Source of the DNA: Tubulanus polymorphus
Lineage: Eukaryota > Animalia > Nemertea
DNA: 64,000 bases
Direction: 5' to 3'
NCBI RefSeq assembly: GCF_964204645.1
Contig: NC_134034.1
Location: 5,430,914-5,494,913, forward strand
Shown: positions 6,541 through 57,266 of the stretch, piece after piece
How the letters are laid out: each line of letters starts with the position of its first letter
Numbering within the stretch: the stretch's first letter is position 1
Notes under the pieces: generated by a model
Databases searched by the model: none
Told to the model about the DNA's origin: nothing
Seen by the model: only the letters and a program-made list of their open reading frames with translations
Program-made: the position numbers and the translations under genes

Positions 6541-6731
6541 GAGACGAGAAGATACACAATATCCGTGTAAGATGATAACGAGAGAAATTCCACAATAAAT
6601 TCAGCCAAAACGAGAAACTGAATAGAAGAGTATACTTGCGCAACGTTAAAGACTACATCATCAGGGTACTGAGCCAACAGGAGAATATTACAAGATATTT
6701 ATACCAAAACAATAGAAACAGAGTGAGTGAT
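6541..6731 (-). mobile_element. Penelope-like remnant, left part (tail plus inverted pseudo-LTR), split by Polinton A
   Basis: 6579-6634 is an inverted repeat of 24657-24712; 13-bp TSD CGACATTAGACTT at 6528-6540 and 24714-24726; tail motif ACACAATATCCGTGT matches the Penelope at 59805. Confidence 0.7.
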
Positions 6732-7254
6732 AGTAATAGGGATAATAGGCTTTCATACCAAAGGTCGAAGGGTCGAGCTCGTAAAAAAATGAAAATAATA
6801 ATTTACAGTTGAATTAGTCGCGCACACTCCTAATTCAACTGTAAATTATTATTATTTTCATTTTTACTCACCCGCCCCTTCAACCTTTGATATGAAAGCC
6901 TATTATCCCTATTACTCTTAAAATATTCACATATATATGAATAACATTTAAATCATTGAACTTCTAAAATCAATTTTAATAAAAAATATAGTATTAAAAT
7001 GGAAGCAAATAAATACTACTGCCCAACATGTAAGATAAGTATAGATAAATCCCAAAAAGCAAGACACAATAAAACTATAACACATTTAGAGAATAAATTG
7101 AAATTAGAATATGAAGATGATATATTAGAAACTAAATTAGAAGAATTAAAGAATGAAAAAGAAACATATAAATGTGATACATGTAATCAATCATTCAGTG
7201 ATAAAAGATATTATAAAGAACATTTAAAATCTATAAGTCATATTAGAAATAAGA
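6732..7254 (+). repeat. Left TIR of A (523 bp), with terminal 185-bp palindrome at 6732-6916
   Basis: Reverse complement of 23926-24450 apart from a 2-nt homopolymer difference and about one substitution. Confidence 0.97.
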
Positions 7255-16106: not shown

Positions 16107-16122
16107 TTATATAATAAAAAAA

Positions 16123-17271: not shown

Positions 17272-17286
17272 ATTAGATTTTAATAA

Positions 17287-17511: not shown

Positions 17512-17527
17512 TTATATAATTAAAAAA

Positions 17528-17962: not shown

Positions 17963-17981
17963 TTATTTAGAATAAAAATTA

Positions 17982-18404: not shown

Positions 18405-18428
18405 TTATTTAGCAAAAAAATTATGCAT

Positions 18429-18992: not shown

Positions 18993-19009
18993 TTATATAA
19001 TGAAAAAAA

Positions 19010-19762: not shown

Positions 19763-19779
19763 TTATTTTACATATTTTC

Positions 19780-20121: not shown

Positions 20122-20149
20122 TTATTATACAAATTTTTATTGAAATTGA

Positions 20150-23100
20150 TTAACACGCTAGAATCCTTTTCATAATCTCATTTTCTTTTGTTTCTTCTCT
20201 TTTGAATTTTATATATTCATCTAAATTGCAACCATAGGCGACTGTGTGGATTCCATCATCTAAAATATATCTTTTATCATCAAATGGGTTTAGACTTATC
20301 TTCTCTATTTCTTCAATAAACATTTCGTGGTACTCAGATCTTAAACATTTCATCTTATGTTTTCTAACTTCTTCATTAAATATACAATTGATGTAATCTT
20401 TGAAATGAATATTCTTTTCTACTACACTTTTGGTTATTCCTTTTAACTTTTTAGCTTCATGAGTTTTAGTTTTATATGAATACATTTTAGATCTAATACC
20501 AATAAACTCTATCATTTCTTCACCACCTAATTCATCCTTAAACTTCCCTGGAACTTTTTTATTATCATTGCTAAACAATTCATGATTTTTTGGATAATTA
20601 CTAAAATCAAAATGGTGTTTTAATGTTTTTAAATCATCTGTTATGTTATCAGTTTTTATCTTTAATATGTAACTGTCGGTATCAAAGTATAGAATTTCTA
20701 TGTGTTTTTCTCCAAAATGGGGTTGTAATATGTTATAGTAAAATTTATACATTAGTAATTTTGAAATTTCTAGAACTGATGCACCAACATAGATTGGTTT
20801 ATTGAACTTCATAGAAGTTCTTCTCATCTTAACTGCTGCTAAATTTTCATCAAATATTCTGTTACCTATAAACTTAGGATATGATTGTAAATGCCTAATT
20901 CTTTTACCATTACTGACTAACTCGATATCATTTCTATTTCTAATATTTTCACAAGTCTTACCATAGAATGCATTATTCATTAACTTGAAGAAATCCTTCT
21001 CAAAATCAGTTTTAGATTTAGTTCTCTGTGTAGTATTAAAATCTATATATTTTTCTAACCATTTAGATTGACTGAATGAAATATATCTATGTACTTTTTT
21101 TAATATCATTCCTTGATTCAAATAAAACTTCAACATTCTATAATGTACTACATAATTATATTTATCTTCTTGAGTCACCATTAACTTTTCAGTATGAATA
21201 TGATTATCGGGTTTAATTCTTTTTTGATAATTTGATAATTCTTCATGTTTAACAGTTTTATGTTCGGGACAATATGCTAGATTTCTAGATTTGAATTTAA
21301 TATTTTCGGGGTATTCAAGGTCTACAACAAAGAAGTAACCAGTATCTGAATCATCTGCAATATCTAGGATTCTTTTCTTTCAATCAAATTTATCAATTTG
21401 TAAAACTTCAGTTATTTCAAACATCCCATAAGGTTGTGGTTCCATCATTGCCCAACCATAAAGATTATTTGCATCTATGTATAATAATTTATATCCAGGA
21501 TTATCATTTACATTGAAATATCTATCACCCAATACACCTGAAACACCTCCTCTTATAGATTTTTCAAATAATAGTAATTGATCTATATTTGTTAACAAAT
21601 CCATTTTTATATCTGTAAATTTTAATCCACAATCCCATGTTAATCCTGGTGATGAATAACAATGACAAGGATCAATGTTAAAATATTTTAGGTTTACATC
21701 TCTAAACCTTTCGAATATATCGGTTAATAATAATACATCTGATTTTAAATATAAATCTACTAATTGCCCATGATTTGTTATTTTGAAATGATTCCAAATA
21801 TTCAATGTTCTATTATAAACTTCATCTTTAACATATTCATTTTTTAATTCATCATAAAATTGTTCTTTTAATAATTCAGTTATATTAAAATCATTATGAT
21901 TTTTATAGAAAGAATATGGAATTGCGCCTTTATATCTCATTAATTTAAAATCATCATAATTTGGGTAATATTCTTTTAATATCTTTAATTCATCATCAAC
22001 TAATGATTTTGATAAGTTATCTAATGAACTACTTAAAAATCTATATGAATCTATAAATCTTAAGCATCCAAATTGGAAAGATATATAATTCTCAGATGTT
22101 TTAGCTAACATTCTAAATTTATAAGTTGGTATTTTATCTTTTGATCTATTTGAATTTAATATTTCTATTTCATTATTGATTTCTTCTATTTTATGACATA
22201 ACTGTTTGATAAATAAATGTGCATCATATCCTGATAGATTATGAAATATAACTGGTACAAAGTTAATTTTCTTAGCTTGTAAGTTACAATTCTCATGTGC
22301 AGCGCCTCTAAACTTTCCATTCAAATGATCATGGTCTCTTACTTTTTTATCTTTATAATTAAATATCTTTTCACAATGATAACATTTATCTGCAAACTCA
22401 AATTCTTCTTTATCTTCTTCTGTCATAATTATTTCTTTATTTGTATTCAATAATTTACTAAATCTTATTTCATATTCAATTAATAAGTCACAAAAATGAT
22501 TGATAACATTTTCATTTCTATAATTATAATATTCACTTTCGATTAGTTCTGGATAATCAGATTTAATATATAACCCGAAAGCAGCAGCTGATTGATGAAT
22601 CTTTTTAATAGTATTTGTTATTGGTGGTTCATCTGAATAATCACTTTCATTAGAATTTAATTTCTTTCTTTTATAATATATATCTTTTCTATCTTTATCT
22701 GTTAATTCTTTATTTAATGATTCAAAATCTCCATATATTACAAATGGTACTTTATTTTTGTAATCATATTTTTTGAATTCTAATATTTTATCCTTTTCAT
22801 TTGGTAAAACTAATTTACAATAATCATGATTATCACACAGTTGTTTATGATTTAATAATATACTTTCATTACTAAATTTATGTAAACATTTTCTACATAG
22901 ATATATTTTATTATGGTGATCACTTTCTGTTCTAAAAAATAAATCTATTTGTTTAATCCACATATAATGATTCTCATAATATAATATATCTATAACATCG
23001 TTTGAATCATAATCTTTTGATAGGTATAAAGGTTCTAATGTATAATGTTTAATATTATTTCCTTTTGTATTTGGTAATTTAATTAAATCAAATACATTTA

Positions 23101-24181
23101 TTTTAAGATTATTATCTCTTTCTATTTTTGGGATGTTTTTAATTCTAACAGGATACTTATCTATCTTATAATTATTTTCAAATGGTTTATAATGAGTTAA
23201 TCTAAAACTATGTGTAATATCTTCTGTTGGATGTAAACAACTTATTATAGCCCATAGAAAACATTTATCATCTTCATTTTGTATATTTATTACAGCATTA
23301 GTTTTAAATGGTAGTTTAATATAACTTGTTCCATTTATACTATCATCTTTATAATATGATAAATTATTTTCATCAATTGGTTTTGATTTAGTTAACTTAT
23401 TATATTTTGTGTTATAAACATGTAAAGTTATAAATATTATCTCATCAAATATTAAACCAGATCCTTCAAAATATTTCTCTTCTATTTTAGTTTTTATTTC
23501 ATTATAACATTTTTCTAATTTATCATCTATATGTTGTTTAGATATAATATGTTGTGAATGAGAATTTATATTATATATTGGTTTATCTTCAGATTTTATA
23601 AACTTTACTTTAGAAGATATACTTATTTTAGGATATTCTACGTTTGTAATTATTTTTATTATTTCTTTCATATTTTCTAAATGTTTTTTATTTTCTTCTA
23701 ATGTTTTACCTTTATGAAATTTAAACTCGATAGCTGCTGGACCAATATCACTTTTAAATGCTTCGGTTATCTCTATATCTTTTTTATTATCTAATGAATT
23801 AATATAATTTCTTACATCTTCCATGTATGGCCTTTTATTGTTTAATTTATTTTTTATTCTTTTAATTGTCTTCTGTTTCTTATTGTTATCATTATCAAAA
23901 TAATCTTCACCTAAAATATCATTATTCTTATTTCTAATATGACTTATAGATTTTAAATGTTCTTTATAATATCTTTTATCACTGAATGATTGATTACATG
24001 TATCACATTTATATGTTTCTTTTTCATTCTTTAATTCTTCTAATTTAGTTTCTAATATATCATCTTCATATTCTAATTTCAATTTATTCTCTAAATGTGT
24101 TATAGTTTTATTGTGTCTTGCTTTTTGGGATTTATCTATACTTATCTTACATGTTGGGCAGTAGTATTTATTTGCTTCCAT
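20150..24181 (-). pseudogene. polB: Protein-primed-type family B DNA polymerase (1343 codons) with one in-frame TGA at 21382-21380
   Basis: Exo I VIYGDFES, EndoVII-like VRDHDH, YIDANNLYG, KLMNNAFYGK, YFDTDS; the two listed ORFs are in frame (198 nt apart); copy C has TGG at this codon. Confidence 0.93.
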
Positions 24182-24450
24182 TTTAATACTATATTTTTTA
24201 TTAAAATTGATTTTAGAAGTTCAATGATTTAAATGTTATTCATATATATGTGAATATTTTAAGAGTAATAGGGATAATAGGCTTTCATATCAAAGGTTGA
24301 AGGGGCGAGTGAGTAAAAAAATGAAAATAATAATAATTTACAGTTGAATTAGGAGTGTGCGCGACTAATTCAACTGTAAATTATTATTTTCATTTTTTTA
24401 CGAGCTCGACCCTTCGACCTTTGGTATGAAAGCCTATTATCCCTATTACT
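23926..24450 (-). repeat. Right TIR of A (525 bp), with terminal palindrome at ~24264-24450
   Basis: Reverse complement of 6732-7254. Confidence 0.97.
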
Positions 24451-24456
24451 AGTGAT

Positions 24457-26220: not shown

Positions 26221-29200
26221 TTGAAGTTTTCTACGCTGAATGTATGTGGCCTTATAGCTAAACTCGATATCCCAGAATTCTGTGAATTTATTAGCAATAA
26301 TGACATCACATGTCTAACTGAAACTCACTTAGATGATTTAGACGGTAATTTAGGTTGTAGCTTGCCCGCCTCCCATATGGCGCACTTTAAAAATAGGAAA
26401 AAGTTTTCAAAAAAAGGATCAGGTGGCGTCGGTATCATATATAGGAAGTTCATGAAAAATAAAATAAAACCAATTTCGACTGACTCTCAGTTTGTATCTT
26501 GGTATTTATTAGATAAAGATTTATTTAATCGCGACAAACATGTACTTTTAGGTGTAATTTATATTCCTCCAGAAAATAGTCGTTATTATTCAGAAATAGC
26601 TATCAGAGAAATTGAAATAGAGTTATTGCAATTGAAAGTTGAGTATGATTTCATTGTGTTAATTTCTGGTGACTTTAATGCTCACACCGCTTGTATGCCA
26701 GACTTTTTGGAACCTGATAATCAGATAATTCAAGATGATAACTTAGACCCTATTGTTGACTCATTGATTAATTTAGGCGTTCCCACTACTAGAAATAATC
26801 AGGACAAAAGAAAGAATAATACAGGCTATCAACTAATAGATTTGTGTAAGAACCATTCACTAATTATCCTCAATGGCAGATGTGGCAATGATCAGACAGG
26901 TAATTATACTTTTAGGAACACTAGTGTCATCGATTATTTTGTGTGTGATTTAGAACTGTTTGGTTATGTTGAGGACTTTGAAATAATGCCTTTTGACCCA
27001 TTATTATCTGATGGACATAATCCTATTAATCTGTGCGTGTATACGAATTCTAGGGACACCATTGCTAGCGATAATGAAAGGGGTAATGAACACGCGAACT
27101 TTAAAACTTCAATTAGGTGGGTCAGTACTAGATCAAATCAATTTTTCCTGAATGTAGAATCAAGATTACGAGATAATGATTTAGATAAGTTACTGTTGGA
27201 CGGGTTGCAAGATCTAGGAATTCAATCGCCAGATGACATTAATGGACTTACCGATAGATTTGTATCTTCTTTATTATCAAGTGCTGAGGAGTGTAATTTG
27301 ATGTACCATAGAAAAAGTAGGAAAAGTAATAACTGCAAAAAACCGGTCCGCAACAGATGGTTTGGCAGGGACTGTAGAGATGCACAGAAGAAATATAATA
27401 ATATGAAAAAAAGATATAGGGGTTGCCCTACCCTTTCCAATTTTGAATCCCTTAAGAACTCGTCTAAAAACTATAAAAAGGTCATCCGAGAAAATAAGAA
27501 GAAACAAAAGGATGAATTTATTAAGGAATTGAGAGAATGCGAAATTAATAACCCAAAAAAGTATTGGTCGATGCTAAACTCTGCGAGCGGAACAAAAAAT
27601 AATGAGGCTAATATAGATATTGATATTTTTCTTGAACATTTTATGAGATTAAATGATTTGAATAATGTTAACAATGAAACCGATGACGGTGATGAGCCCC
27701 CAGACGTGGGTGACCATCCTGTCTATGACAATTATATTTTGAACAGTGATATAACCAGTGATGAGGTAATTAAGGCTATCTCTTTACTCAAAAACAATAA
27801 GGCCCCAGGCATTGATGGAATCACGAATGAGCTGTTGGGAGTTAGTCAGTATCCGTTTTTAGTTGATATATTACAAAAATTATTCAATTTAGTTCTTAAA
27901 ACAGTATATGTTCCAGAGATGTGGTCTATAGGCGTCATCAAACCCATTTTCAAAAAGAATGGCGATCCCTCTAATCCTGATAATTATAGAGGTATTACCT
28001 TAGTTAGCTGTCTTGGTAAATTATTTACAAGTATCCTAAATCAAAGATTGTCAACATTTCTAGATACGAATCACATTATAAGTGAAGCCCAGGCTGGCTT
28101 TAGATCGAAATATTCCACCATTGATCATATTTACACGCTTAAAACAATCGTAGAGCTGTATCTTTGTCAGGGAAGAAGACTTTTTTGCGCCTTTGTTGAT
28201 TTTAAGAAAGCTTTCGACTCGATTTGTAGGGTAAAGTTATGGCGAAAATTAATTGCTAACAATGTTAATGGAAACTTTTTCGATGTGGTCAAAAATATGT
28301 ATAACTCCATAAAATCATCTGTTGAATTAAATGGTTGCACGTCACAATACTTTGCAGCTGATAGAGGCTTAAGACAAGGCGAAAATCTCTCACCTATCCT
28401 CTTTTCGTTATTCTTAAACGACATTGAAGAATTTTTCATTGATCGTGGAAAACCGACTTTGTCATTTATAGAAAAACTAAATTTGAATCGTGATCAGGAT
28501 ATTGATACTTTACTGAATTTATTCATAATACTATACGCAGATGATACAGTTATTCTTGCTGAGGATGAGAAATCTCTTCAGCTACACTTAGATACCTTAT
28601 TTGAATATTGCGCGGCTAATGGTCTCACTGTTAACTCAGAGAAAACTAAAGTACTAGTATTTGCGCGAAGTAAATCCCGGATAAAAACGATTTCGAAATT
28701 TATGTTTGGTGATCAAGAGTTAGAGGTAGTTGAAGATTATGTTTATCTCGGAGTAAAATTCAATTGGAATGGTAACTTTGCTAAGGCAAAAAATTATCTT
28801 TACGATAAAGCTATCAGAGCTATGTTTTCGATCGTTCAAAAAGGCAGACGTTTGAAATTGCCCATAGATGTTATGTTTAAATTATTTGATACGTGTGTTG
28901 CTCCAATAGCCATGTATGGGTGTGAGATCTGGGGATATGAAAATCTTGATTTATTAGAAAATATTCATTGCTTCTTCTGTAAAATCTTAATGAAAGTGAC
29001 GAACAATTCTCGCAACTTACAAGTTTTATCAGAGCTAGGACGTTACCCTTTGAATATAGATGTTAGACGCAGGATGATTAACTTTTGGGTGAAAACAGTA
29101 TCTGGAAAGCAAACCAAACTTAATTCAATACTCTATAAAATATCTTTCAATTTATTTTTAAGGGATAAATTTAAGAGCCCTTGGTTATCATATATAAAGA

Positions 29201-29496
29201 AAACGTTTGATGACTGTGGTTTGTCCTGCATTTGGACGCAGCAATTCATGACTAACAGTAAATCTTTTTCAAAACGAATAAAACAGATACTCCGTGACCA
29301 GCACCTTCAAGAAACTGTATCTGCCATTAATACTAATCCGATATACACTAACTTTAGGCAATATAAGAATGATATTAGGTTAGAGAAGTATATAATAGAA
29401 CTTGGTGATGACTTAGGAACTAGTTTATTTGAATTTAGGGTCGGGTCCTATATTTTACCTGAGACCGGCTTAGATGTATATAGATCCCTCCAATAG
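26221..29496 (+). CDS. LINE ORF2, AP endonuclease plus reverse transcriptase (RTEX-like); C-terminus probably truncated
   Basis: LNVCG, LTETH, GDFNA, IDY, SDGH; FVDFKKAFD, GLRQGENLSP, LYADD; YGCEIWG; ends abruptly after ETG. Confidence 0.92.
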   Translation: MKFSTLNVCGLIAKLDIPEFCEFISNNDITCLTETHLDDLDGNLGCSLPASHMAHFKNRKKFSKKGSGGVGIIYRKFMKNKIKPISTDSQFVSWYLLDKDLFNRDKHVLLGVIYIPPENSRYYSEIAIREIEIELLQLKVEYDFIVLISGDFNAHTACMPDFLEPDNQIIQDDNLDPIVDSLINLGVPTTRNNQDKRKNNTGYQLIDLCKNHSLIILNGRCGNDQTGNYTFRNTSVIDYFVCDLELFGYVEDFEIMPFDPLLSDGHNPINLCVYTNSRDTIASDNERGNEHANFKTSIRWVSTRSNQFFLNVESRLRDNDLDKLLLDGLQDLGIQSPDDINGLTDRFVSSLLSSAEECNLMYHRKSRKSNNCKKPVRNRWFGRDCRDAQKKYNNMKKRYRGCPTLSNFESLKNSSKNYKKVIRENKKKQKDEFIKELRECEINNPKKYWSMLNSASGTKNNEANIDIDIFLEHFMRLNDLNNVNNETDDGDEPPDVGDHPVYDNYILNSDITSDEVIKAISLLKNNKAPGIDGITNELLGVSQYPFLVDILQKLFNLVLKTVYVPEMWSIGVIKPIFKKNGDPSNPDNYRGITLVSCLGKLFTSILNQRLSTFLDTNHIISEAQAGFRSKYSTIDHIYTLKTIVELYLCQGRRLFCAFVDFKKAFDSICRVKLWRKLIANNVNGNFFDVVKNMYNSIKSSVELNGCTSQYFAADRGLRQGENLSPILFSLFLNDIEEFFIDRGKPTLSFIEKLNLNRDQDIDTLLNLFIILYADDTVILAEDEKSLQLHLDTLFEYCAANGLTVNSEKTKVLVFARSKSRIKTISKFMFGDQELEVVEDYVYLGVKFNWNGNFAKAKNYLYDKAIRAMFSIVQKGRRLKLPIDVMFKLFDTCVAPIAMYGCEIWGYENLDLLENIHCFFCKILMKVTNNSRNLQVLSELGRYPLNIDVRRRMINFWVKTVSGKQTKLNSILYKISFNLFLRDKFKSPWLSYIKKTFDDCGLSCIWTQQFMTNSKSFSKRIKQILRDQHLQETVSAINTNPIYTNFRQYKNDIRLEKYIIELGDDLGTSLFEFRVGSYILPETGLDVYRSLQ

Positions 29497-30827
29497 TATA
29501 TATAGTATTGTAAATAGTTGATGTATATAATAGTATATATAGTATTGTAAATAGTTGATGTATATATATATTTCGTTACGTTTTCATTCTCTAAATTTTA
29601 ATCACTTTAGTGTTGTTTTGTAAATATTTGTATATACATGTGTAATAGTTTTCCTCCATATACCATGGAAATGGTTGGAGTGTAAATAAATCGTAATCGT
29701 AATCGTAATCGTAATCGTAGAAATCAGTTCGATTTTCCTCGCTGTCGAACGTGCTTGTGCGATTGTGTAGGTTCACGGCTTGGCTTTGTGCTGTAACCAT
29801 TACTTCGTGTTGAACTCTGTGTCCTACGTTGTGCAGTTCGGAGCCTGTCGTCCAGGGTATTCCAATGTGGAATAGGGGGTAGTCCACTGTGTGTAGTCAG
29901 ATCCAATGTGTTTGCGTAGATTTTTGAAGCCCACTGTGTGCGGGCGTCCACAATGTGTTTGGACAAAATTGCTGTAGCCACGGCGTGTTTGGATCAGAGG
30001 CTGTGTGCGTCTCAGGATTGTGTGCTGCCTGCTGGGTGCGGGATGGTGGGCTGAATGGAAAAGTATGGAAGAATCGTTACGTTTGAAATAAAGAGTGATG
30101 ATGAATAATGAATTTTTAGGGCAGAGAAAACTCGAGAGGTCGGGGTTGTCAATTCTCTATATTCTAAGTGTGTTTCGGTATACTTCGTTGGTCCCACTAT
30201 TGTGAGATTTATCGGTCAGGGGGATCGTTTATTATTTCGGTTTTTTTAATCTGTTTCGGGGATTTTATTTAGCGCATAAATCGCTTCCGTGGAGAGTTTA
30301 ATCGCGCTCAAAGCTTGATTTAGTTTGCTCCGTTCGTGCGGGACGCGTGACAAATACCTTATATTTTACAGTTTTACGCGAGCCTTTTGACTACTCAGAT
30401 CTTAGCATTTTCATTGTTCTTGTTTATGGCTGGCGTCGTGTTGCGTTTGCCCTTGGAGGCCTATTCCACGGGTTTTACTTGTTGGTCGATTTGTCTTTTA
30501 CCGTTTTCCGAGGATTAAATACAACTTCAAAGGATTTGGGCGTCTGAAACCTTTTGATTGTTTACGCTGGTAATAAAGTTTCAATTTGTTGTTTTATTGC
30601 GTCCGTTGTCATGGCTTCGGTCATGTTGGCTGGGGGTTAGTTTAGTATACTCCTTTTAGGGATGCAGTACGATCTATTTTGAGGATGTGGATTTTATGGC
30701 TCTCCAGTCCATTATAGCATTAAATAGTTTCAGCAGAGACTTATCACATTGGACTGGTATTTGGAATTAATCCGCCAATATTGGACTGTTTGAATCCTAC
30801 GACATTACGCCATAGGGACGTGCGAAC

Positions 30828-31327
30828 ATACCGACAAACCGATGAACCGACAAACCGACATACCGACAAACCGACATACCGACAAACCGACGAACCAACA
30901 AACCGACGAACCGACATACCGACGAATCGACATACCGACGAACCGACAAACCGATGAACCAACATAACGACGAACCGACAAATCCGTGCGTGGATTACCC
31001 TTATATAAAGTGGCTGGAAGCGAGGGGCTGCGTGTTTGCGTGGATAACCCTTGTATAAAGTGGCTGGGATCGAGGGGCTGTGTGGTGCGTGGATTACCCG
31101 TGTACAAAGTGGCTTGGATCGAGGGGCTGTGTGGTGCATGAATAACCCTTATATAAAGCGGCTAGGATCGAGGGGCTGCGTTGTTGCGTGGATTACCCTT
31201 ATATATTGTGGCTAGGATCGAGGGACAGGGTTTTTCCGTGGATTACCCGTGGCTGGATCGAGGGACTACGAGTATGTCGGTTCGTCGGTTTGTCGGTATG
31301 TCGGTTTTTCGGTATGTCGGTTTGTCT
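30828..31327. repeat. Composite repeat: inverted 9-mer arrays flanking a ~50-bp minisatellite
   Basis: (ACCGACAA/ACCGACAT)n, then (GGATTACCCTTATATAAAGTGGCTGGGATCGAGGGGCTG..)n, then (GTCGGT..)n. Confidence 0.85.
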
Positions 31328-33866: not shown

Positions 33867-34790
33867 GGATCAAGTATAAAATGGTAATATAGTCCCTCAT
33901 CGCGGAAGCTTAAGACAAAATGAATGAGTGATTCAGTTTATAATTCTGTATTTGAATTATAACATCGGCAATCCCGACATTCCGACACTCCCGACATACC
34001 GAAAATCGGACATACCCAACAATCCCAACATTCCCAGCATACATGGGATTATTAGGAACCGAACGCCCCACGATCCCGGCACCTCTTTACAGGGGAATAT
34101 CAAGAACCGAACGCACCACGATCCTAGGGGAATATTAGGAACCAAACACCCCACGGTCCCAGCACCTCTGTACATGGGAATATTAGGAACCAAACACCCC
34201 ACGATCCCAGTACCTCTATACAGGGGAATATTAGGAACCAAACGCCCCACGATCCCAGCAGCTCTGTACAGGGAAATATTAGGAACCAAACGCGCCACGA
34301 TCCCGGTATTTCTCTACAGGGGATTATTAAGAACCGAACGCCCCATAATCCCAGCATCTCTCTACAGGGGATTATTAAGAACCGAACGCCCCAGCCTTAC
34401 AAATATATATTCTCAAAACAACTGGCCTGGTTAGATAATGGCTGGTATGTCTGTATGTAGGGTTGTATAGCATTGCCGGAGTGCCGGTATGTCGGGAGTG
34501 CCGGTATGTAGGGAGTGCCAGTATATCGGTATGTTGGGAGTGCTGGTATATCGGTATGTCGGGAGTGCCGGTATGTCGGAAGTGTCGGTATGTCGGAATG
34601 TCGGGTATGTCGGGAGTGCAGGTATGTCGGGAGTGCCCGTATGTCGGAATGTCGGTATGTTGGGAGTGCCGGTATGTCGGGAGTGCCGGTATGTCGGATT
34701 GCTGGTATGTCGGGAGTGCCGGTATGTCGGGAGTGCCAGTATGTCGGGTGTGCCGGTATGTCAGATTGTCGGTATATGTCGGGAATGTTA
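33867..34790. repeat. Composite repeat element (unique end, 9-mer array, 48-bp minisatellite, inverted 9-mer array)
   Basis: Inverted homologue of 37240-38188. Confidence 0.85.
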
Positions 34791-37134: not shown

Positions 37135-37239
37135 TCACTTCGCCTGACCAAAAACTATACTAAAAATGGTCCGAGTAAGTAGATCGACCCGACAAACAAT
37201 CTATCAGTGCCGCCATTTTGAATTTGATCCCATTTTGAA

Positions 37240-38188
37240 TTTGATGACATTCCAGACATTCCACACAGATATTCCAGTCATTATTTAAACAGGTCAGTTG
37301 TTTTGAGAATATTTATTCTAAAGGCTGGGGCGTTCAGTTCCGAATAATCGCCTGTAGAGAAATACCGGAATCGTGGGATGTTTGGTTCCTAATATTCTCC
37401 TGTACAGAGGTGCTGGGATCGTGGGGCGTTCGGTTCCTAATATTCCCCTGTACTGAGGTGCTGGGATCGTGGGGTGTTTAATTCCTAATATTCCCCTGTA
37501 CAGAGGTGCTGGGATCGTGGGGTGTTTAATTCCTAATATTCCCCTGTACAGAGGTGCTGGGATCGTGGGGTGTTTAATTCCTAATATTCCCCTGTACAGA
37601 GGTGCTTGGATCGTGGGGTGTTTGATTCATAATATTCCCCTGTACAGAGGTGCTGGGATCGTGGGGTTTTTGGTTCCTAATATTCCCCTGTACAGAGGTG
37701 CTGGGATCGTGGGCTGTCTGGTTCCTAATATTTCCCTGTACATAGGTGCTGGGATCGTGGGTTGTCTGGTTCCTAATATTCTCCTGTACAGAGATGCTGG
37801 GATCGTGGGTTGTCTGGTTCCTAATATTCTCCTGTACAGAGGTGCTGGGATCGTGGGGCGTCCGGTTCTTGATATTTTTCTGTACAGAGGTGCCGGGATT
37901 GTGGGGCGTTCGGTTCCCTGTAGAGAGGTGCTGGGATCGCGGTATGTCGAATTGCCGGTATGTCGGAATGTCGGATTGACGGTATGTCGGGAGTGTCGGA
38001 ATGTCGGGATTGTTGGGTATGTCGGATTGCCGGTATGTCAGGATTGTCGGGTTGCCAGAATGTCGGGAGTGTCGGAATGTCGGGATTGCCGATGTTATAA
38101 TTCAAATACAGAATTATGAACCGAATCATTCATTTTATCTCAAGCTTCCGCAATGAGGGACTGTATTACCATATTTTATACTTGATCC
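37240..38188. repeat. Composite repeat element with ~12 copies of a 48-bp minisatellite
   Basis: Unit TTCCTAATATTCCCCTGTACAGAGGTGCTGGGATCGTGGGGTGTTTAA. Confidence 0.88.
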
Positions 38189-39971
38189 AGAAAACGTGTT
38201 TTGGAAGTTTGACTCGCAATTACTTTACAAATTAAACTAAAAAAGATAATTGAAAACGGTAAAAAGTATATAAATTAGACCACATATAGATGTCAATTGA
38301 TCCTGTAAACTTCAAAAAATGTAAATCAAAATTTGTAAGAATTACGAACTTTTGAATGAGATGAGCAATAATTCAAGTTGAATTATCGGGAAGACGATAT
38401 CAATATGATAACTACACATCTCATTGTTTTGATTGTTTTGAAACGGATTATTTCATTCCTGCGCATTTTTGCGTTTCGTTTTAACAAATATAACGGCCTT
38501 AGGTGATCTTCACCGTGGGGGTCATGCATGAAGAAATCCTGATAGAATTTGTTAAGATGAAACCGCAACGTTTTGACTGTTGACTAACATGTCATCATCA
38601 GGGGGGATGTAGACATTCCAAGTGATTTGGGCGGGCTTTAACTCAGATGGCTGGCACTGAAAATACGAAACGTTGTGGTTTGACTTTGATAGATGTCATC
38701 ATATAAAATCTTATCGTGGAATTTCTTCATTTATCGGATTAGAGTGTTGTATTCGACTAATTCGGGTCATTGGTCGTTTAGATTGAAAATAGTTTACTTT
38801 TCGGCAAAGAAGGTATATACAACCGTTTCAGTCGCTATGGGAGAGATTCTCTGTATATATCAGCATCTTAAATCGGCACCTTTGTTGTTCCTAATCCGCA
38901 TTTCCAATTTAACGTACTGGTATAGTCTTACTCTGAATGCACTTCTGTCAGCGATTATGGTGCCACTGATATAAAAGTAGTTTTTATTTTACAATAATTT
39001 GAGAAAATGAGTTAAATTGGAAACAATTTATAAGTATCTTAAAATTCAGCGATTCATTGGCATCTTCAGATTTTTGCGATGCTAAGTTTATTACTACTAT
39101 AGAGGTCATTGCTTTCGGTTCCTGGTCTTTTCGTGGTCAGTGCAGTTTGTTTATTCGTTCATCAATCACTGTCCAGTGTAATTAAGCCAGTGTAATTCAC
39201 CTGGTAACTGATAGCTGCAGCTGGGCTTTTGATGACCTATATAAACAATTTACTTTAGAAATTAGGAAAGCATGTGAAACTAAAATTTCAGCCTTGTATT
39301 TCTTCTTATTAGACCAAAAGAGGTTTTTTCTATCAAATGTATACTGATTTCAAAATTACGTGAACATCTCAACTGAAATTATTTCAGTGTTTAATCAATC
39401 AATAATGATAATTGTTAGGCTTATTCTCACTAGCATGCTCAATGAGTAATGGGTATTAGATTAAAATGTAATGTACTATTATAGCCTACGCTTCTTATGA
39501 TCTTATATTAGATGTTGTAATATCATTTCAACCAAACTGTATAACTAAGAGACGAAAATTTACTTAGAATAACAACGGTTGTTTTTCTGAATTTATCATT
39601 TGTCACACAAATATATAATGAAATTTATTTCCCCTTAAATTTCGGACAATATCTAACAATATCTGGCACCAAAAAATCAGTCAAACTAGATAACTCGATG
39701 ATTCAGCAGTTAAATCGAGCCCAGACCGTCGAACAAACCGACAGTAAAATATCACCGAAAGTAAAAGGGAATGTGTTGTTCTAGATCAAAGGTCGAAAGG
39801 TCGAGTGAGTAAAAAAATGAAAAATAAATTCGAGTGTGCAAGAATTTATTTTTCATTTTTTACTCACTCGCCATCTCAACCTTTAATCTAGAACAACACA
39901 TTCCCTATTGCTCTTAAAATATTAATCTAATAACTTCTAAAATCAATTTTAATAAAAAATTTGATATTAAA

Positions 39972-42927: not shown

Positions 42928-42980
42928 AAAAACAATACAATTGAATAAGCAACACTAGCTAATTCAATTGTATTGTTTTT
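42928..42980. repeat. Hairpin resembling the apex of A's terminal palindrome
   Basis: 19-bp perfect arms AAAAACAATACAATTGAAT / ATTCAATTGTATTGTTTTT. Confidence 0.8.
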
Positions 42981-46079: not shown

Positions 46080-46673
46080 TTATATATCAAATTTTTATAA
46101 AAATAAGTTAAAATTCAAAAAGAGTTCGCTGAAACCTTACGTTTTAAAATATTTCTTTACCCTTATTGGTGATATCTTTTATTCTATCTAGAAATGATTT
46201 GTTGTTCTCTCTGTGTACTTGTTTACTCTCCATTTTAATATCAAATTTATTATTAAATTGATTTTAGAAGTTATTAGATTAATATTTTAAGAGGGAATGT
46301 GTTGTTCTAGATTAAAGGTTGAGAGGGCGAGTGAGTAAAAAATTAAAAATAAATTCGAGTTTGCGAGAAAAATATAATAAAGCTGCAGAAGAATACAGAG
46401 AAAAGAGACCAAACTATATGGATTATATCAATAAAGAATTATATAATCAGAAAATTACACATAGAGATTTTCAATCAGTAGATGAAGCTGTGAGTTTATA
46501 TAACGCAGTAACAAATAAAGAAAAATTACATCTATACAAACCTAAGTTATCGGATTATTATACCCCAAGTAAAGAACAACAGAAATATGAAATAATATGG
46601 ATTTTAGGTGGAACAGTTATTGTTATATTTGTTGCATATAAATTTACTAATTAGTAATTTCTTTTCTTAACAA

Positions 46674-47102
46674 ATGGATGATAAAGTTGATAATATTGAT
46701 ATTATTCCTCATGATATAAATAAAACTAAATTAAAATCATATTTGGAAAAACAAATATTAGAATTTGAAAGTGAAAGTGACTTAAAGATAAAAAAGAAAA
46801 AATATTTAAAATCTAAAATTATATATTATTTTATTATTAGTGGTTCAGTTACAATTAGTTCTGTTATAACATTTCTAGCAATATTCAGTCCATTAACACC
46901 TTTAGCTAAATCAATTGACGTGTTAGGATTAAGTTCAAGTGTTTTAACCGGAATAAGTTCAAAATTAAATATAAAAAGTTATAAAGAAAGAATAAAATCT
47001 AATATAAAAGAAATTAATAAATTAGAAAATACATTAGATTATATAATCAGTTTAAATGGTAATATAACAGTTGAAGAACAAGATAAATTATTAAAAGAAT
47101 AA
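46674..47102 (+). CDS. Two-TM protein homologue
   Basis: Highly similar to 17528-17962. Confidence 0.6.
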   Translation: MDDKVDNIDIIPHDINKTKLKSYLEKQILEFESESDLKIKKKKYLKSKIIYYFIISGSVTISSVITFLAIFSPLTPLAKSIDVLGLSSSVLTGISSKLNIKSYKERIKSNIKEINKLENTLDYIISLNGNITVEEQDKLLKE

Positions 47103-47370
47103 ATTAATAATCAATTTTTTAATTATATAAATGGCTATTAGTTATCCAAAAGCTTTCCAATATAATAAATCAATTAAATATAATATTCCTGCAATAGATT
47201 GTAATAAAAATATTTCATATAGAAATGAAGTTTTAAATTCATTAATTAATTGAGATATTTATGTTACTTAAACTAATAATTTTAATGCAAAGATGGAAAA
47301 TATATTTCATGTATATATAATTAATTTTAAAAAAATGAAAGATGAAAAACAATGGTTATTAAAATCTAAT

Positions 47371-48305
47371 ATGAAGTATTGGCAGAACCAATTAAATTTT
47401 GCTGTTTATTGTGCTACAACAGGTGTGGTATAAGTTGGAATGATCATTTGAATAATTCCAAATATAAATTAATTCAAAGTTTATTTAGATTCCATACATA
47501 CTTTCAAATAAGATTAATATTAAATGAATTAGAGACCCCTTTGCCAGGATCTAGATATTTTAAAGAATTAGATAATAATATCAATTTATCAAAGTTTTAT
47601 AAAATTTGTAATGAATTTGATATAGATATAAATCATTCTGATTTTAGAACTAAAATCGGAACAATAAGATCTTTTCCTTGCCCTAAAAAGATTGCAGAAT
47701 ATTGTGCACTTCCCATACCATCTAATCATTTTTATAATATCTATAATAATAAATTAGGTTATGGTAAAATAGAAACTAAGGATTTAGAAACATTAAATTT
47801 CAATAAATTACCGAAATTCTATGATAATTTAAAACAAGAAAATAATAATGGTTGGGTTTATTTCATTTTAGATAATAGTGAAGGTTTTACTAAAACTGGT
47901 ATACAAAGAATAAATCAATCAATTAGAACTTATTTGATATGTATACTAGGCGCTCAAGTTGAAACAAGATTCCCGATAATTGGAAATTTAAATACATCAT
48001 TTGATACACAAAAACAATTTAAAGTATTATTTGATTCTATTCATAATGATAAAAATAGATCGATTCCAGAAAACATAGTTAGGTACCAAAATTATCTAGA
48101 TAAATCACATGTAAGATTAAATTATTGTATAGGGCCTGATGATTCTAAGATAAAAGATTACAATACATCAGAAAATATAAAAACTGATAATATTCAACAC
48201 GAAATAATTAGAACTAATAATGATAATAAATCCCATGAAAATACTAAATTAGCTATAACTTGTATAGGAATTGTAATTGGAGGAATATTATATTCTAAAT
48301 TTTAA
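47371..48305 (+). pseudogene. 382-aa protein homologue with frameshift and internal deletion
   Basis: Homologous to 16123-17271. Confidence 0.85.
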
Positions 48306-48320
48306 TTTTTTATTATATAA

Positions 48321-50018
48321 ATGGATGAAGGAATTCCATTGGATGACATGGATCCTTTAGATGAACCTGGTATAAGTGATGAACCACAACCTGAATTTAA
48401 TGAAACTAGTATCAATAATGATGATGGATCAGCATATAATAATAATTCAAATAATGATGAAGATGACGATCCATCATATAATTCTAGTTTAGCTGATGAA
48501 GATGATGGTGTAATTGATTACGAAACGCATGAAAAATTTAAAGAATATATGACAGCTCCCGAAAGGGAAGTTATTAAACCCATAACATTTAGAAAAGATT
48601 TAATGAATAGATTAGTAAATACAACTGATCCTTATTTGAAAGATCAATTATATGGAATGATAAGTAGAGTAATAGATTCAATTGTTAACGAATTATTACC
48701 AAAAGATGAAATTGATTCAGAAGGTGTTGTAATGCAAATTTTAAAAGATGACCCATTTTTCATGAATAATTAAGAATTTAAAAATGATGCATGGTTTTAT
48801 TATGTTGAATTAAATAACAAAACTGCATCAATACAATTATCTAGAATGGGTCAAGAAAATATTTCTGAACCTGGAATGCTAGCAGGTCTTCAATTGAACA
48901 TTCAAAAGGTGGTACAGAATTTCTCAGAATTATATGGAATACACTCGATAGAATAAATGAAAAAGAACCAGTTGGTATTTATATTCACAAATATTCACCA
49001 TTCAAAAATCCAAATTTAAATCCTACTTATGTTGACCCAGAAATGGAAGAGTATGGAGATCGATTAGATAAATTAAGAACTTCAACACCAGGAACATCGA
49101 GAAGAGATATTCAACAAATTGATAATGATTCAAGCCAATTACAATTAGTAAAACATTTTGATAGCATGTTAGATACAGTTCATTCATTTGAAGAAGAGAT
49201 GAATAGTATTTTAGATACACCTGGTACTAAAACTGGAACAAATCAAATGCCACATTTATTTAAAAAAAGATTACTTGATTTAAATGAAGAACAATTAAAA
49301 ATATTTCCTGAACAAGCACGTAGAGAAATTAAAGGTATGCAAGAATCAGCTGGTGAAATTGCTAATATTAAGATGAGATTTTCTAAAATAACCATGTTAG
49401 AAAAAGAATTAACTAATGCAAATGAAGAATTAAAACAAATAGAATTGAATAGAGATCTTCAAGTAATTGATGAAGTTGAATATGAATGCAAATGATGATT
49501 TAAAATATAACAAAGAATTACAGGAAAAAGAAAGAGATATATTATTGAAATCATATGATCATATGATAGAAAATTAAAAATTATTTTTAAAGATTTAATA
49601 CTAAAACCAAATTCTAAAATATCATTGAAAGATAGAATTAGATTATCATCTAAACTAGAAGGTAACAATTCTTTCAATTCTAACAGCTGTAACTATGATA
49701 TTCACAACAATTGGTTTAGCTATTTCAAATTCATTAAAATCTACGCCTACACCCAATAAACCGGATAAACCTACAAGTCATAATAATTCTATACAAGATA
49801 AAGTTAAAGATGGTTTAAAAAAATTAGCAAAATATCTATGGGAACTATCTAAACAATCTGCTGCAGCTTTACCCGGAGTTATAGCATCAATTGTTGGTTT
49901 TGTATTAAAATCTGCTGGAAATATTATTAACTTTGCTGCTGAACATATAATCTTATTTTTAATTACAGTTGTAAGTGCAATTATTTTTGGGTTAGTAAAT
50001 ATAATAAAAAATAGATAA
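48321..50018 (+). pseudogene. 533-aa protein homologue with a divergent N-terminal half
   Basis: C-terminal ~110 aa nearly identical to A; broken into three ORFs. Confidence 0.8.
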
Positions 50019-50038
50019 TTAATTTTTTTGTTAAATAA

Positions 50039-50945
50039 ATGAGTGGGAGTTATATAAATCCTTCTAAGAATTCTAGAATATCTTATGCTATTAAAGCAGA
50101 GAGATCTCATCATAAAATTACTCATAATCCTTCTAATATTAATCCTGATGAAACTTTATATGTTAGAATCCCGAGATTAACACAAAATACTTTTTATGTT
50201 CCAAATAGTATTTATTTATCAGCTGATATAAAAGTAACTGGCCATGATAATAATTATGTTGTAGATAATGTTGGGAGATATTTGATTAAAAATTAACTAT
50301 AAAGATAGGACCAGAAACAGTTTTCTCATTAGATGATTATAATTTATTTATGCATTATAAAGATTTATGGTTAACAAAAAAAATAGAAATACTATGATAT
50401 TTTAAGGTATCAATTTAGAAAACCATAATAAATTAAGATCAGAAGCTAATAATGCAATAATAACTAATGCTACAGATAATTTGATAAAAAAGATTTATGG
50501 AAGCAAATATAAAATTCCATTAGATTTTGAATTGATAAATAATAATGCACCTTTATATAAATATGCTATTCAAGAAAATATTATATCCGAGATAACATTT
50601 GCTCCTTTAAATGAAATTGTGCTATCTAGCGTTGTTAAAGATATGGGATATAAATTATCGAATATATGTTTAAAATATGATACAGTAACTGATGAAATTA
50701 TTGCTAGCACAATTCAAACTCAATATAATCAAGGATTTTCATTTTTATATGATTATATTGAAAAATTTAAAACTGTAACTATTAATGCAAATGATGAAAT
50801 AATTAATGAGAATATTAACTTCCAAAGAAGATCTATTAAAGAAATATATATAAATATTTTTTACAATTGCAACATATTCTAATGGTGCAATACAGGTTGA
50901 TAAGTATTATAATCCTGAAATAACAAAAGTAGAAATAACTATTGA
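50039..50945 (+). pseudogene. Major capsid protein pseudogene, 3' truncated
   Basis: Homologous to 13176-14423; frameshifts; homology ends at ITKVEITIE. Confidence 0.88.
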
Positions 50946-51637
50946 AATTTAATAAAATGAATATATTAGATTATCGGTGGTATAGAAAAACATTTACAGA
51001 TTATTTCTCGAGTAATGATATAGTTACTGTATTGAAAAAGTTATCTAACTTTAAACCAAATCTAACTTATGCAATGAACTTATTTGAACTTAAATATGAT
51101 GATTTTATAGAATTTTTAAATAAACATCCATCTTAAACTGAAATCGAAAATTTTATTCAAAAAATATTTTCAACAGCAACATTCAATAAATAAAAACTCG
51201 GGAATCATTTAGGAACTATACCAATGACAATGCAAAAGAATATATGGTTAGAAAACAATAACCTTAAAGAAAAATATGAAAATGAAAGAGTAATTTCTAT
51301 TTACATATCGATGACGGGTGTACGAATGGTGCGAATGGTACGAGTGTAATAATATATTATGTACATTATATATGTTGCCCTCGTACACTCATACAACTTG
51401 TACACTCGTACATAGATATATAGTTATTTTAAAAAAGGGGGTTTTAAGCATTCAGGTATCTAATACGTATGTAATATGTATTTAAGTATTTATGTATCTA
51501 ATACGTATCAATCAATATAACCTTTATTATTTTCAAACTTAGTTGAAAAAAAATAAAAATATATTAGTTGAAAAATTAAAATAAATAATATATTTTTTAA
51601 AAAGGGGGTTTTAAGTATTAATGTACCTAATACGTAT

Positions 51638-52292
51638 TTAATACGTATCTAATACGTACCTAATACGTATTAAGGTATCTAATACGTATCTAATACACAA
51701 ATGCAAATACACAAATTCATATTCATAAGGAAATTGTAGTTTCAGAAGTAATTTTGAACCTTTATTACTTTTTAATTTATTCATATATTCATCATGTAAG
51801 TCAGAAGGTATAATTTGATTTTCTTCCAATGATTGTTGCATCGATTTTCTATCTTTATTGTAGAATAAAACTAGAAATCTAATGTTTTCTCTAAAATCTT
51901 TAACAATTGATTTATATTTTTGATTTAAAATCCATGTTGTTATCCCAAAATGCCTACCAGAGAAAGCTAGATAACATAACTCACTTTCTCTAACTTTTGA
52001 ATCATGTAAATTAGCACAATCATCTATAATGAATAATGTATTTGAACCTTTATAAATATCAATTGCTATTTTAATACAATTATCTAAATTTTCTTTCACT
52101 GTTTTAGGATCTAATATAATAAACTTTTTTCTCTTAACTATGTCTCTATTATATGTTTTATTCATTTCATAAGTGGGGCAGAATAATATAAATAGTTTCT
52201 AACAAATCTAATATGAAATGCGTTTTACCACAGTTGATTACTCCAGTAACTAACATATTATGTGGTTCAAATATAAATAAATCTTTATTCAT
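51638..52292 (-). pseudogene. Packaging ATPase pseudogene
   Basis: Homologous to 11344-11955; deletion near the 5' end. Confidence 0.88.
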
Positions 52293-53361
52293 TCATTCTT
52301 TTAATTTTACTAGATAAAATCCATTCATTAAATTTATCATCATACCCTTTATATTTCACCAAAGAATACTTTTTTCCTTCAAGAGTTCTTGTTTTCAATA
52401 CTTTTTTTATTTTATATTCTATTTCATCTGGATTTGGTACAAGTGATAATTCTTGTTCATAAAAATAACCTAATATTTCTTTATCTTTTAAATCTTCTAA
52501 TTTATAAACAAAAGGTTTAGTTAATATTGTCTTTTTAATTTTGAATATTTCTTCTGTAAAATTTGGAGTATAACCTTTATAAAAAGTTTTTCGATATTTA
52601 GATATTCTTACATGTTGTCCAATTTTAAATCTAGGTTCTCCAAAATCATGTGTGACAAATGCTCCATATAAATTATTCCATACTATTTCTTCATTATTTT
52701 CTTTTCTAGCTTGTATAGGTTTCATACCAATACTTGAATGTTTAGAATTATTATAACCTTTCACTAAATCATCTATATATTTATATGTTTCATTAGCAGT
52801 AAAATATTTCCACATTCTAGTTTTCAATGTTTTATTAAATCTTTCTATAATAGATGCTTTTTTATCTGAGTGTGTTGAAAAATATTCTACATCGTTTTCG
52901 GATAATAGTTTTTTGAAATGTTTATTATAAAATTCCTTACCTTCATCGAATTGTATCTTACCTGGAATAGCTTCTTTAAATATTTATTTAAAGGCATTAG
53001 TAACTTCTATACCAGTTTTATTTTTGATTGGAATTGACCATGCGTATCTACTAAATATATCTATAACATTTAATATCCAGAAATATCCTTTGTTGTATTC
53101 TTCTAAGTTCTTCATGTCAATTAAATCTGCTTGCCATTGTTGTTCAATATATGAAACCATTACTTTTCTTGTTGAATAATTTTTATCCATTTTCTTATGG
53201 ATTTGATATGTTGGTTGGTTTTGTAACCATAATCTTAGTTCACTATATTTTATATTTTATTTATCAGATTTAATTTTATCCCATAATTCTGAAACACTAG
53301 AATATGATACTTTACTCTCTGGGTTATAATATAAATCTCTTAAATACTGTTCTTTTTTCAT
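52285..53361 (-). pseudogene. Integrase-chromodomain pseudogene
   Basis: Homologous to 10251-11351; frame breaks. Confidence 0.9.
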
Positions 53362-53852
53362 CTTATTTTAATCCATCAATATTAATTTAGATTTATTTTC
53401 AATGATTTTAACATTTGATCTATTTTCTGGTATAATAGGTTTATCGTCATCATTATTGTTATTAAATTTAGATTTATATATTACACCGGATAATATTATA
53501 ACTGTTACTAATCCAATTGTAATATATAATGTATTATTACTTCCAGCATTAGAAGAATCAGATGGATTATCATTCGAATCAATAACAGATAATTTCTGTG
53601 ACTCATTTATAACAGTTAATTTCTTTTTCTTAGCTCTTTTCAATTCTGAAGATCTTTTACCCAATTCCCTTGCCCATTTAATTTCTTTTCGGATCTAGGT
53701 TTCTTCTTAATATCATCCCTCATTTATTTTACTTAATTTTTGTTCTGATTCAATATCTTCTGATTTATTTTTATCTTTACATACTATAGGTTTAATGTTA
53801 GAAAATGTTATAACTCCAGTAAAATAAATCAATGTCATTATTTCTCCTAATT

Positions 53853-56800: not shown

Positions 56801-57266
56801 ATGTGAAGCATTTAATTCCGCAATAATGATTAATGTCTAAAATTACGATTTAGAATTTTTGGAACCGAGCTTTAATACAAAATCCATGAGGTGGTGCCTC
56901 GAAAAAAACGTAAAATTTTCTCAAATTGGATGAAACTTTTTGATTTTGTCGCAGACTTGTACGTAATTTCGTGATATGAATATATGAAATGAAAGCCCTG
57001 ATAAATCTAAATAAAATGAAAAGAGAATTACTTCCATACCTATAAAACTCTTTGTTTTATTCGCAGATTAGTAAATGATGCAATTTTAGTTCCCTCGGCT
57101 GACAATAGGGGGCGTTAAACCATTTTCGCACCACCTGTTACCATGGAAACGACCATCACCAGAACCGTACATGACCCCCCTATCACAAAATAACAATATC
57201 CCAAGCAGAGCAAATGTGTCAATGAGAATCTCTTATTTTGCAAGATAGGATCTGGCTGCTCCTCTA
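53853..57266 (+). mobile_element. 5'-truncated AcademX-like DNA transposon (XPG/PIN-like nuclease plus Cys-rich C-terminus), pseudogenised
   Basis: HEEADTRI, ATDTDI, LTGCDSVS and LPPT motifs; CKC..C..NCSC..CT..C.C...C; ends ...CCTCTA; 85-bp tandem duplication at 55544-55713; interrupts the 200-aa gene homologue. Confidence 0.75.
56399..56573. mobile_element. pogo/Tc1-type MITE
   Basis: TA-flanked imperfect TIR (C/G)AGT(C/G)AACCCCC(G/A)ATAT.CCGCCC. Confidence 0.7.

Follow-up and report, generated by a model that had tools for sequence, protein, structure and literature searches.

Imperfect palindromes at the ends of a Maverick/Polinton family in Tubulanus polymorphus as possible fold-back end signals

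The ends of a Maverick/Polinton family were studied in a stretch of 64,000 nucleotides (nt) from the nemertean Tubulanus polymorphus (assembly GCF_964204645.1, contig NC_134034.1, positions 5,430,914 to 5,494,913 of the forward strand), hereafter the window, to whose own numbering all coordinates refer. We found that two copies of the family, elements A and B, carry long imperfect palindromes at the extreme ends of their inverted repeats, and that the arms of these palindromes co-vary, which supports, as far as a comparison of sequences can, the view that a folded structure is maintained. We further found that all eight element-level asymmetries between the arms are near-pairs (G·T/G·A) on the 3'-ending strand only, an observation that is new here. 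Collectively, these results suggest that the palindromes may well be fold-back end signals acting on the 3'-ending strand, a reading that we prefer, short of calling it probable. The replication of Mavericks/Polintons and the role of their long terminal repeats are still a matter of conjecture, with no origin, terminal protein or end-binding site defined.

Terminal palindromes and co-variation of their arms

At both ends of A and at the left end of B, the palindrome begins with base 1 of the element (Table 1). A-left opens with AGTAATAGGGATAATAGGCTTTCATA... and B-left with AGTAAAAGGGAATGTGTTGTTCTAGA..., the latter having fixed mismatches at 39794·39878 and 39801·39871. A-right is an inverted copy of A-left with two differences and the same mismatch columns (27, 35, 42 and 47-49). 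The fourth end, B-right, breaks off at the 3' margin of the loop (46357-46372), where it is fused via a shared AGAA to the internal coding sequence of another copy; the sequence beyond the junction, from 46366 on, is homologous to A at 18270, inverted, and the break lies at the palindrome centre. The outer arm of B-right was found nowhere in the window.

Each palindrome has the same layered build. From the outside inwards we observed a conserved 10-nt tip (AGTAATAGGG), a variable 16-nt cassette, a conserved motif (AAAGGTYGANNNGKCGAG), three variable bases, a conserved A-rich stretch, an AT-rich apical stem of variable length, and a loop of 11-13 nt recognisable by TCGC..CACTC. The motif AAAGGTYGANNNGKCGAG occurs seven times in the window against 0.09 expected, always within hairpin arms, and GGTCGA occurs five times in A against 1.04 expected, four of the five in its two outer arms. 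Since Rfam gave no match in the window at gathering thresholds, the palindrome is not a known RNA family. When folded as single-stranded DNA, the A hairpin reached -62.7 kcal/mol (shuffles -11.9 +/- 3.1; z -16.7) and the B hairpin -52.3 kcal/mol (shuffles -10.5 +/- 2.4; z -17.1), and none of 200 shuffles was as good in either case.

In order to follow the two arms together, A-left, A-right and B-left were aligned so that column i pairs with column 188-i, giving 67 stem positions. An initial sequence-only reading had claimed that B differs from A in its outer stem and has a shorter apical stem with pairing kept, both arms having changed together. The strings that it quoted are present, the arms measure 70-72 nt in B and 86-88 nt in A, and the apical stem of B is accordingly the shorter. 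Changes on both sides with pairing kept were found at 13 of the 67 stem pairs between A and B, ten of them in columns 12-25, the cassette; 42 pairs were invariant, one was altered on one side, and two (columns 35 and 42) were unpaired in all three hairpins. None of 500 shuffles came up to these counts, and with the partner shifted by 1-3 columns only 0-2 double changes were left. Complementarity extends over all 67 aligned columns, including the AT-rich apical parts, which are unlike in length and sequence, and no mismatch interrupts the 26 outermost pairs of A or, private changes aside, those of B. Within the cassette, 10 of 16 positions differ between A and B, above the 29% divergence of the adjacent non-coding DNA (P = 0.0055). 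The two ends of A are copies of each other, so the alignment amounts to a single A-versus-B comparison of two independent lineages.

Reads of the same species extended this comparison to the wider family. Depth was about 6 reads on the flank left of B and 1100-3100 on the hairpin motif, and 1873 reads with unlike flanks broke precisely at 6731/6732, which identifies 6732 as the true tip. From the motif and flank depths and the diverse-flank breaks, we put the family, very roughly, at a hundred or more insertions. Among the read variants listed, complementary variants of similar frequency occurred at no fewer than eight paired cassette sites (Table 1). At least two further cassette types were present in loose-end read strings; one of them, GGGAATAAGTTGTTTCATA, was seen in both arms (at place 6751, and in run X2 at 39884). 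The claim that the structure is maintained is therefore supported by both the A-B co-variation and the read variants.

A few changes are private to one arm and uncompensated: 6872 in A-left, where 76% of reads carry the other base, and 39765 (83% of reads differ), 39873 (99%) and 39910 (99%) in B-left. These uncompensated changes indicate that the arms are not homogenised in place. Arm matching therefore arises in the lineage of active elements, via selection or a step of the replication cycle. Neutral homogenisation of the arms, to which random mismatch positions would have pointed according to the sequence-only reading, is thus contradicted in its in-place form, though the shared mismatch columns are expected by descent.

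Arm asymmetry and strand bias

We then found that the arms differ from each other in a constant way. Columns 35 and 42 are unpaired with a single polarity in all three complete hairpins, and the half end agrees, as had been claimed for both copies. The outer arm reads ..GGTCGA...GTCGAG in every copy, with two intact GGTCGA 8 nt apart, and the inner arm ..GGTTGA...GGCGAG, with the hexamers GGTTGA and GGGCGA; one copy reads GGCGGG, and the inner counterpart of the motif in A-left (6871-6888) holds GGTTGA and GGGCGG. Flip-flop of the whole hairpin was seen at none of the three complete ends and was rejected for the ends seen, there being one arm polarity throughout, the half end included. Inversion is confined to the apex of B-left: its loop GAGTGTGCAAG (39832-39842) runs opposite to those of A-left (6818-6830), A-right and B-right (46357-46367) and to the loop strings in reads, and its arm asymmetries are uninverted, so the apex alone has flipped.

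The stronger claim, that specific mismatches are maintained as bubbles like those of parvoviral hairpins, stood only in part. Aligning the termini, the check proposed at the outset, yielded the co-variation described above; under random placement, however, two shared mismatch columns have P = 0.19, and their sharing by A and B is explained by common descent anyway. On the B-left outer arm, 86% of reads had C at column 35 and 86% had T at column 42. The other 14% carried inner-arm letters and are probably inner-arm reads aligned to the outer arm; the inner partners of both columns in B-left had no variant among those listed. At column 35 the asymmetry, C in the outer arm and T in the inner, also appears in other read subfamilies and is widespread. 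The column-42 asymmetry (outer T, inner G) is not universal, being absent from at least two subfamilies that have GGTCGAG in both arms (320 reads at 6879; 289 and 325 at 39819 and 39854).

We next counted a stem position as element-level when its pairing fails at both ends of one element, or in A and B alike. This gave columns 27, 35, 42 and 47-49 in A and columns 28, 35, 38 and 42 in B, eight distinct columns in all. When the ...ACT-3' strand folds, each of the eight becomes G·T, A·G or G·A, and when the 5'-AG strand folds, each becomes C·A, T·C or C·T; the sign-test value is 0.004, or 0.016 with columns 47-49 taken as one event. The four private changes were divided, one favouring the 3' strand, two the other strand and one neither. 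Across the three hairpins, the 3'-strand form is the stabler by 9.4, 8.3 and 2.7 kcal/mol, and in A its first 41 positions are paired without a break. With transversions at three of the eight columns, CpG deamination as the only source of the asymmetries was ruled out.

Of all mismatches, G·T and G·A disturb a DNA duplex least. The bias of the asymmetries thus points to selection that would act on the fold of the 3'-ending strand. The pattern fits tolerated near-pairs as well as required bubbles, and for the conserved mismatches it suggests the former rather than the latter.

Fold-back and alternative explanations

A mechanism can be outlined from these features. Strand-displacement replication by the protein-primed polymerase of the element would leave the ...ACT-3' strand single-stranded, and the last 150-190 bases of that strand would fold on themselves, locally rebuilding a duplex terminus from which synthesis of the complementary strand could initiate. 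A worn tip might be re-copied with the inner arm as template. The intact double GGTCGA, present in the outer arm only, could allow an end-binding protein to discriminate the true end from an internal copy, for which the integrase and the zinc-finger region at the N-terminus of the polymerase are candidates. Hairpin formation in vivo and selection for pairing on the 3' strand are what we infer here. The fold-back reading fits because the outermost 26 pairs are perfect, the near-pairs lie deeper in, and the tip, motif and loop are conserved. It is further supported by the position of the palindrome, flush with the 6-bp duplication and the AG..CT tips, and by the protein-primed polymerase gene that adjoins the hairpin.

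Several points weigh against it. The fully sequenced independent lineages are two only. Folding of the strand puts the near-pairs on the intact GGTCGA, a poor fit to the idea of a single protein that reads duplex and folded form alike. The read tables give marginal frequencies in which the arms are unlinked, and reads from one arm may align to the other. Depth on the outer-arm motif was about twice that on the inner one, with about 3100 against 1350 reads in A-left (6753-6786 versus 6872-6888) and, likewise, about 1100 (39784-39811) against about 600 (39861-39888) in B-left; symmetric-arm copies, solo arms or read alignment may account for this. Raw DNA reads had no pile-up of molecule ends at tip or apex, and a free form was not detected. 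Moreover, 34 loci of distant polymerase relatives, fetched with the polymerase alignment as query (30 from genome_contigs and 4 from viral_contigs), yielded no palindrome like these, with the termini of the loci not located. A palindrome filter that recovers all three window hairpins gave palindromes of at least 50 nt in four of these loci (L005, L017, L024 and L037), none of them alike. Tandem GGTCGA was present in none of 38 loci, again with termini not located, and the hairpin motif had no exact match in viral_contigs. Four metagenome matches to the motif were rejected as chance, being single and non-palindromic and lying on GC-rich contigs. Searches of viral_contigs and metagenomes thus gave no hairpin relatives outside this species.

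The fold-back reading has a more far-reaching version, a built-in telomere. The inner arm would be a protected template and the terminus would be regenerated by fold-back of the 3' strand; the outer double GGTCGA would mark the end, and the cassette would be a fast-evolving specificity code separating competing subfamilies. We regard this version as doubtful. If true, it would place an asymmetric origin like that of the minute virus of mice (MVM) within a protein-primed, integrase-bearing virus.

The palindrome might instead be two inverted protein-binding sites that work as duplex, made up of tip, cassette and GGTCGA motif, with no hairpin and with arms that co-change to fit the same protein. 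The cassette, diverging beyond its non-coding neighbourhood, does look like a specificity determinant, the tip and motif are conserved, and the fixed polarity with GGTCGA intact in the outer arm only is as such sites would have it. We nevertheless consider this explanation unlikely. Binding sites do not account for complementarity across all 67 columns, AT-rich apical parts of different length included; both inner hexamers are spoiled, so that the inner motif is no good second site; and the strand bias at eight of eight columns would be meaningless for a duplex.

A parvovirus-like rolling hairpin would have the 3' hairpin prime its own extension and a nuclease, for example one of the endonuclease VII/HNH type, resolve the product, the asymmetry leaving one arm nickable. 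The left end of MVM has an asymmetric bubble that makes one arm active and fixes one orientation, and the fixed orientation seen here is similar. The better hairpin forms on the 3'-ending strand, with its 3'-OH at the base, and a nuclease domain is encoded in the neighbouring polymerase gene. Hairpin priming has also been proposed for palindrome-ended virophages and polinton-like viruses, although those palindromes are mostly in elements without a protein-primed polymerase (bioRxiv 10.64898/2026.07.28.741278), and here such a polymerase is encoded. Neither the HUH nickase nor the flip and flop forms that mark the parvoviral rolling hairpin were found: no HUH/Rep (Rep/NS1) gene was recognised among the 16 open reading frames (ORFs) scanned, and whole-hairpin flip-flop was seen at none of the three complete ends. 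No pile-up and no turn-around junctions were reported in the reads. Taken together, these findings make a rolling hairpin distinctly improbable.

Finally, the palindromes might have no function, the arms being copied mechanically onto each other by gene conversion, template switching or fold-back fill-in and the mismatches inherited from the ancestor of A and B. Two shared columns are indeed expected by descent (P = 0.19), the inverted loop between uninverted arms in B-left is a sign of inter-arm recombination, and the column-42 asymmetry is not universal. However, the private one-arm mutations of the genomic copies stand uncorrected, and indiscriminate copying should have wiped out asymmetries that lie 2-20 nt from the cassette; these have survived, with a single polarity and a single strand bias. 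The cassette and the apical stem vary freely between subfamilies, in which the tip, motif and loop are conserved, and we think that an absence of function is quite unlikely. The ends do not look like a hairpin telomere of the poxvirus or phage N15 type, in which the genome ends at the covalently closed apex, since both arms lie inside boundaries set by the target duplication and read ends do not pile up at the apex.

The family supplies a dissected Maverick/Polinton end, with a conserved tip, a variable paired cassette, an asymmetric double GGTCGA, an A-rich stem and a conserved loop. With the strand bias added, concrete DNA substrates that are cheap to test are at hand for the integrase and for the polymerase's N-terminal zinc-finger region. 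A caution also follows: mismatches conserved in a hairpin need not be required bubbles and may be tolerated G·T or G·A pairs.

The elements, their surroundings and known systems

The window is eukaryotic DNA in which host sequence of 35-45% G+C contains embedded stretches of 21-25% G+C, and these stretches are copies of one Maverick/Polinton family. Element A carries an rve integrase, a protein-primed polymerase and AG..CT inverted repeats with a 6-bp duplication, all of them marks of Mavericks/Polintons. Its inverted repeat (6732-7254 versus 23926-24450) is about 520 bp long, and an unoccupied copy of its site exists, with contigs of runs X3 and X4 passing from 6731 straight into the right flank. 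B has about 3 kb in common with A. When the two were compared, no counterpart of the polymerase, integrase or packaging-ATPase genes of A was found anywhere in B, which keeps the palindromes despite this.

The polymerase gene of A is in two frames about 200 nt apart, whereas relatives have a single protein of 1319-1365 amino acids (aa), whose N-terminal and C-terminal parts the two frames match respectively. Frame 1 (24181-21380, 933 aa) has C2H2 fingers and an endonuclease VII/HNH domain ahead of the polymerase part. Frame 2 (21181-20150, 343 aa) shares 83% identity with residues 1023-1365 of the relative P0001 (1365 aa), an alignment that takes in a YFDTDS motif. In the close relatives P0001-P0003 the polymerase shows 69-75% identity. 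Of 45 polymerase relatives, 8 carry PF03175, and the nearest Atlas clusters carry PF03175 and PF02945; in the Pfam scan, the ORFs of A itself stayed below the PF03175 threshold. A PDB sequence search with the 933-aa ORF gave zinc-finger matches only, and the polymerase ORF as a single query found no relatives in viral_contigs. Pfam recognised no capsid family in the ORFs at 14505-16106 and 16123-17271. The 30 contigs with polymerase relatives at loci L005-L034 are labelled as bacterial or archaeal metagenome-assembled genomes (e.g., Sedimenticola, Rickettsia, Nitrosopumilus); the simplest view is that eukaryotic or viral DNA was binned wrongly.

Table 1. Positions of the palindromes, elements, genes and other repeats in the window, with paired read variants of the cassette
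Feature	Position	Strand	Details
Element A	6732-24450, 17,719 bp		5'-AG..CT-3' tips; 6-bp target duplication AGTGAT on both sides
Target-site duplication AGTGAT	left copy 6726..6731, right copy 24451-24456		read directly in the sequence
A-left palindrome	6732-6916, 185 nt	+	outer arm 6732-6817, loop 6818-6830 (TCGCGCACACTCC), inner arm 6831-6916
Variable 16-nt cassette	A-left outer 6743..6758, partner 6890-6905	+	second layer; nearly wholly different between A and B
Outer-arm motif AAAGGTCGAAGGGTCGAG	6760..6777	+	A-left; two GGTCGA 8 nt apart
A-right palindrome	24264-24450, 187 nt	-	inner arm 24264-24351, loop 24352-24364, outer arm 24365-24450
Element B	39760 to about 46366		6.6-kb derivative Maverick/Polinton copy
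B-left palindrome	39760-39912, 153 nt	+	outer arm 39760-39831, loop ~39832-39842, inner arm 39843-39912
B-right	46291 to ~46367	+	inner arm and loop only; six bases gone at the arm base
Paired read variants	6742 A>G 44%		partner 6906 T>C 50%
Paired read variants	6747 A>G 40%		partner 6901 T>C 44%
Paired read variants	6756 T>G 38%		partner 6892 A>C 42%
Paired read variants	6757 A>G 36%		partner 6891 T>C 42%
Paired read variants	39773 G>A 63%		partner 39899 C>T 58%
Paired read variants	39774 T>A 23%		partner 39898 A>T 30%
Paired read variants	39781 C>T 30%		partner 39891 G>A 13%
Paired read variants	39782 T>C 25%		partner 39890 A>G 15%
rve integrase with chromodomain	10251-11351	+	PF00665 36.0 bits, cut-off 32.6; chromodomain weak
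A32-type packaging ATPase	11344-11955	+	Pox_A32 43.6 bits, cut-off 22.8
Protein-primed family B polymerase gene	20150..24181	-	two reading frames; start 83 nt from right hairpin
Two more rearranged copies	46366-59520 and 59595-64000
Long interspersed element (LINE)	26221-29496		endonuclease and reverse transcriptase
Penelope-like element	59804-62023		reverse transcriptase with GIY-YIG domain, ORF 59965-61599

Other repeats surround and interrupt the elements. An AT-rich repeat, TTCTAAAATCAATTTTAATAAAAAAT..., occurs at 6962-6990, 20096-20151, 24200-24230, 39925-39960, 46208-46263 and 59491-59546, upstream of several genes and, within the inverted repeat, just interior to each hairpin. This repeat probably serves as a common promoter, and recombination at it may have given rise to the short copy B. 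A 53-nt palindrome, 87% complementary (42928-42980), sits exactly where the similarity of B to A stops (42926). The Penelope-like element interrupts the polymerase gene of the fourth Maverick copy (59595-64000). There are also host tandem arrays, built of 8-bp ACCGACAA-type units at 30782-31014, of 48-bp repeats in two inverted blocks about 3 kb apart at 34126-34393 and 37230-37997, and of 73-bp repeats at 192-913.

The terminal inverted repeats of Mavericks/Polintons were reportedly treated by Kapitonov and Jurka in 2006 and by Pritham et al. in 2007. The present family shares with them the AG..CT tips, the 6-bp duplication, repeats of several hundred base pairs, the rve integrase, the protein-primed polymerase and the A32-type ATPase; it differs in that the first 153-187 bp of each repeat themselves form an imperfect palindrome. 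In the adintovirus paper the word hairpin does not occur, and a literature search for Polinton/Maverick with hairpin or palindrome returned one relevant paper. This paper, a 2026 preprint, describes endogenous virophages and polinton-like viruses of Halocafeteria seosinensis with palindromes of about 52 nt in their inverted repeats, by the target duplication, mostly in elements without a protein-primed polymerase, and proposes a hairpin-priming model (bioRxiv 10.64898/2026.07.28.741278). The palindromes here likewise lie within inverted repeats and beside the target duplication; in contrast, they measure 153-187 nt, belong to a polymerase-encoding Maverick, co-vary between copies and have a fixed arm asymmetry.

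Poxvirus hairpins resemble the present ones in part. Vaccinia has incompletely paired hairpins whose mismatches are needed for packaging and for binding of a telomere protein, structure mattering over sequence (PMC8956199). The poxvirus apex is covalently closed and occurs in flip and flop forms, whereas here both arms lie inside an integrated element with one polarity. The left end of the parvoviruses MVM and LuIII is an imperfect terminal palindrome of similar size with fixed unpaired bases (PMC1185569). Parvovirus genomes differ in being single-stranded and 5 kb long; they replicate by means of an HUH nickase and lack an integrase. The scan for a Rep gene came up empty here, and arm polarity is known from three and a half ends.

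Another parallel is the telomere of Streptomyces linear replicons. Its terminal 150-170 nt are packed palindromes, which include G·A pairs, take up their fold in the 3' single strand and bind an end protein (PMC4513846), and truncated telomeres are repaired by extension on a fold-back palindrome (PMC5449611). It too is a protein-primed system with terminal palindromes folding on the 3' strand; it is bacterial, however, with several short palindromes where we found one long one, its replication starts internally, and a likeness of sequence would not be expected. Streptomyces fold-back is thus a precedent, in a protein-primed system, for the mechanism proposed above, which may also be likened to an adenovirus panhandle on a small scale. 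In summary, the case would connect eukaryotic elements that are protein-primed with the fold-back principle at work in Streptomyces telomeres and at the ends of parvoviruses.

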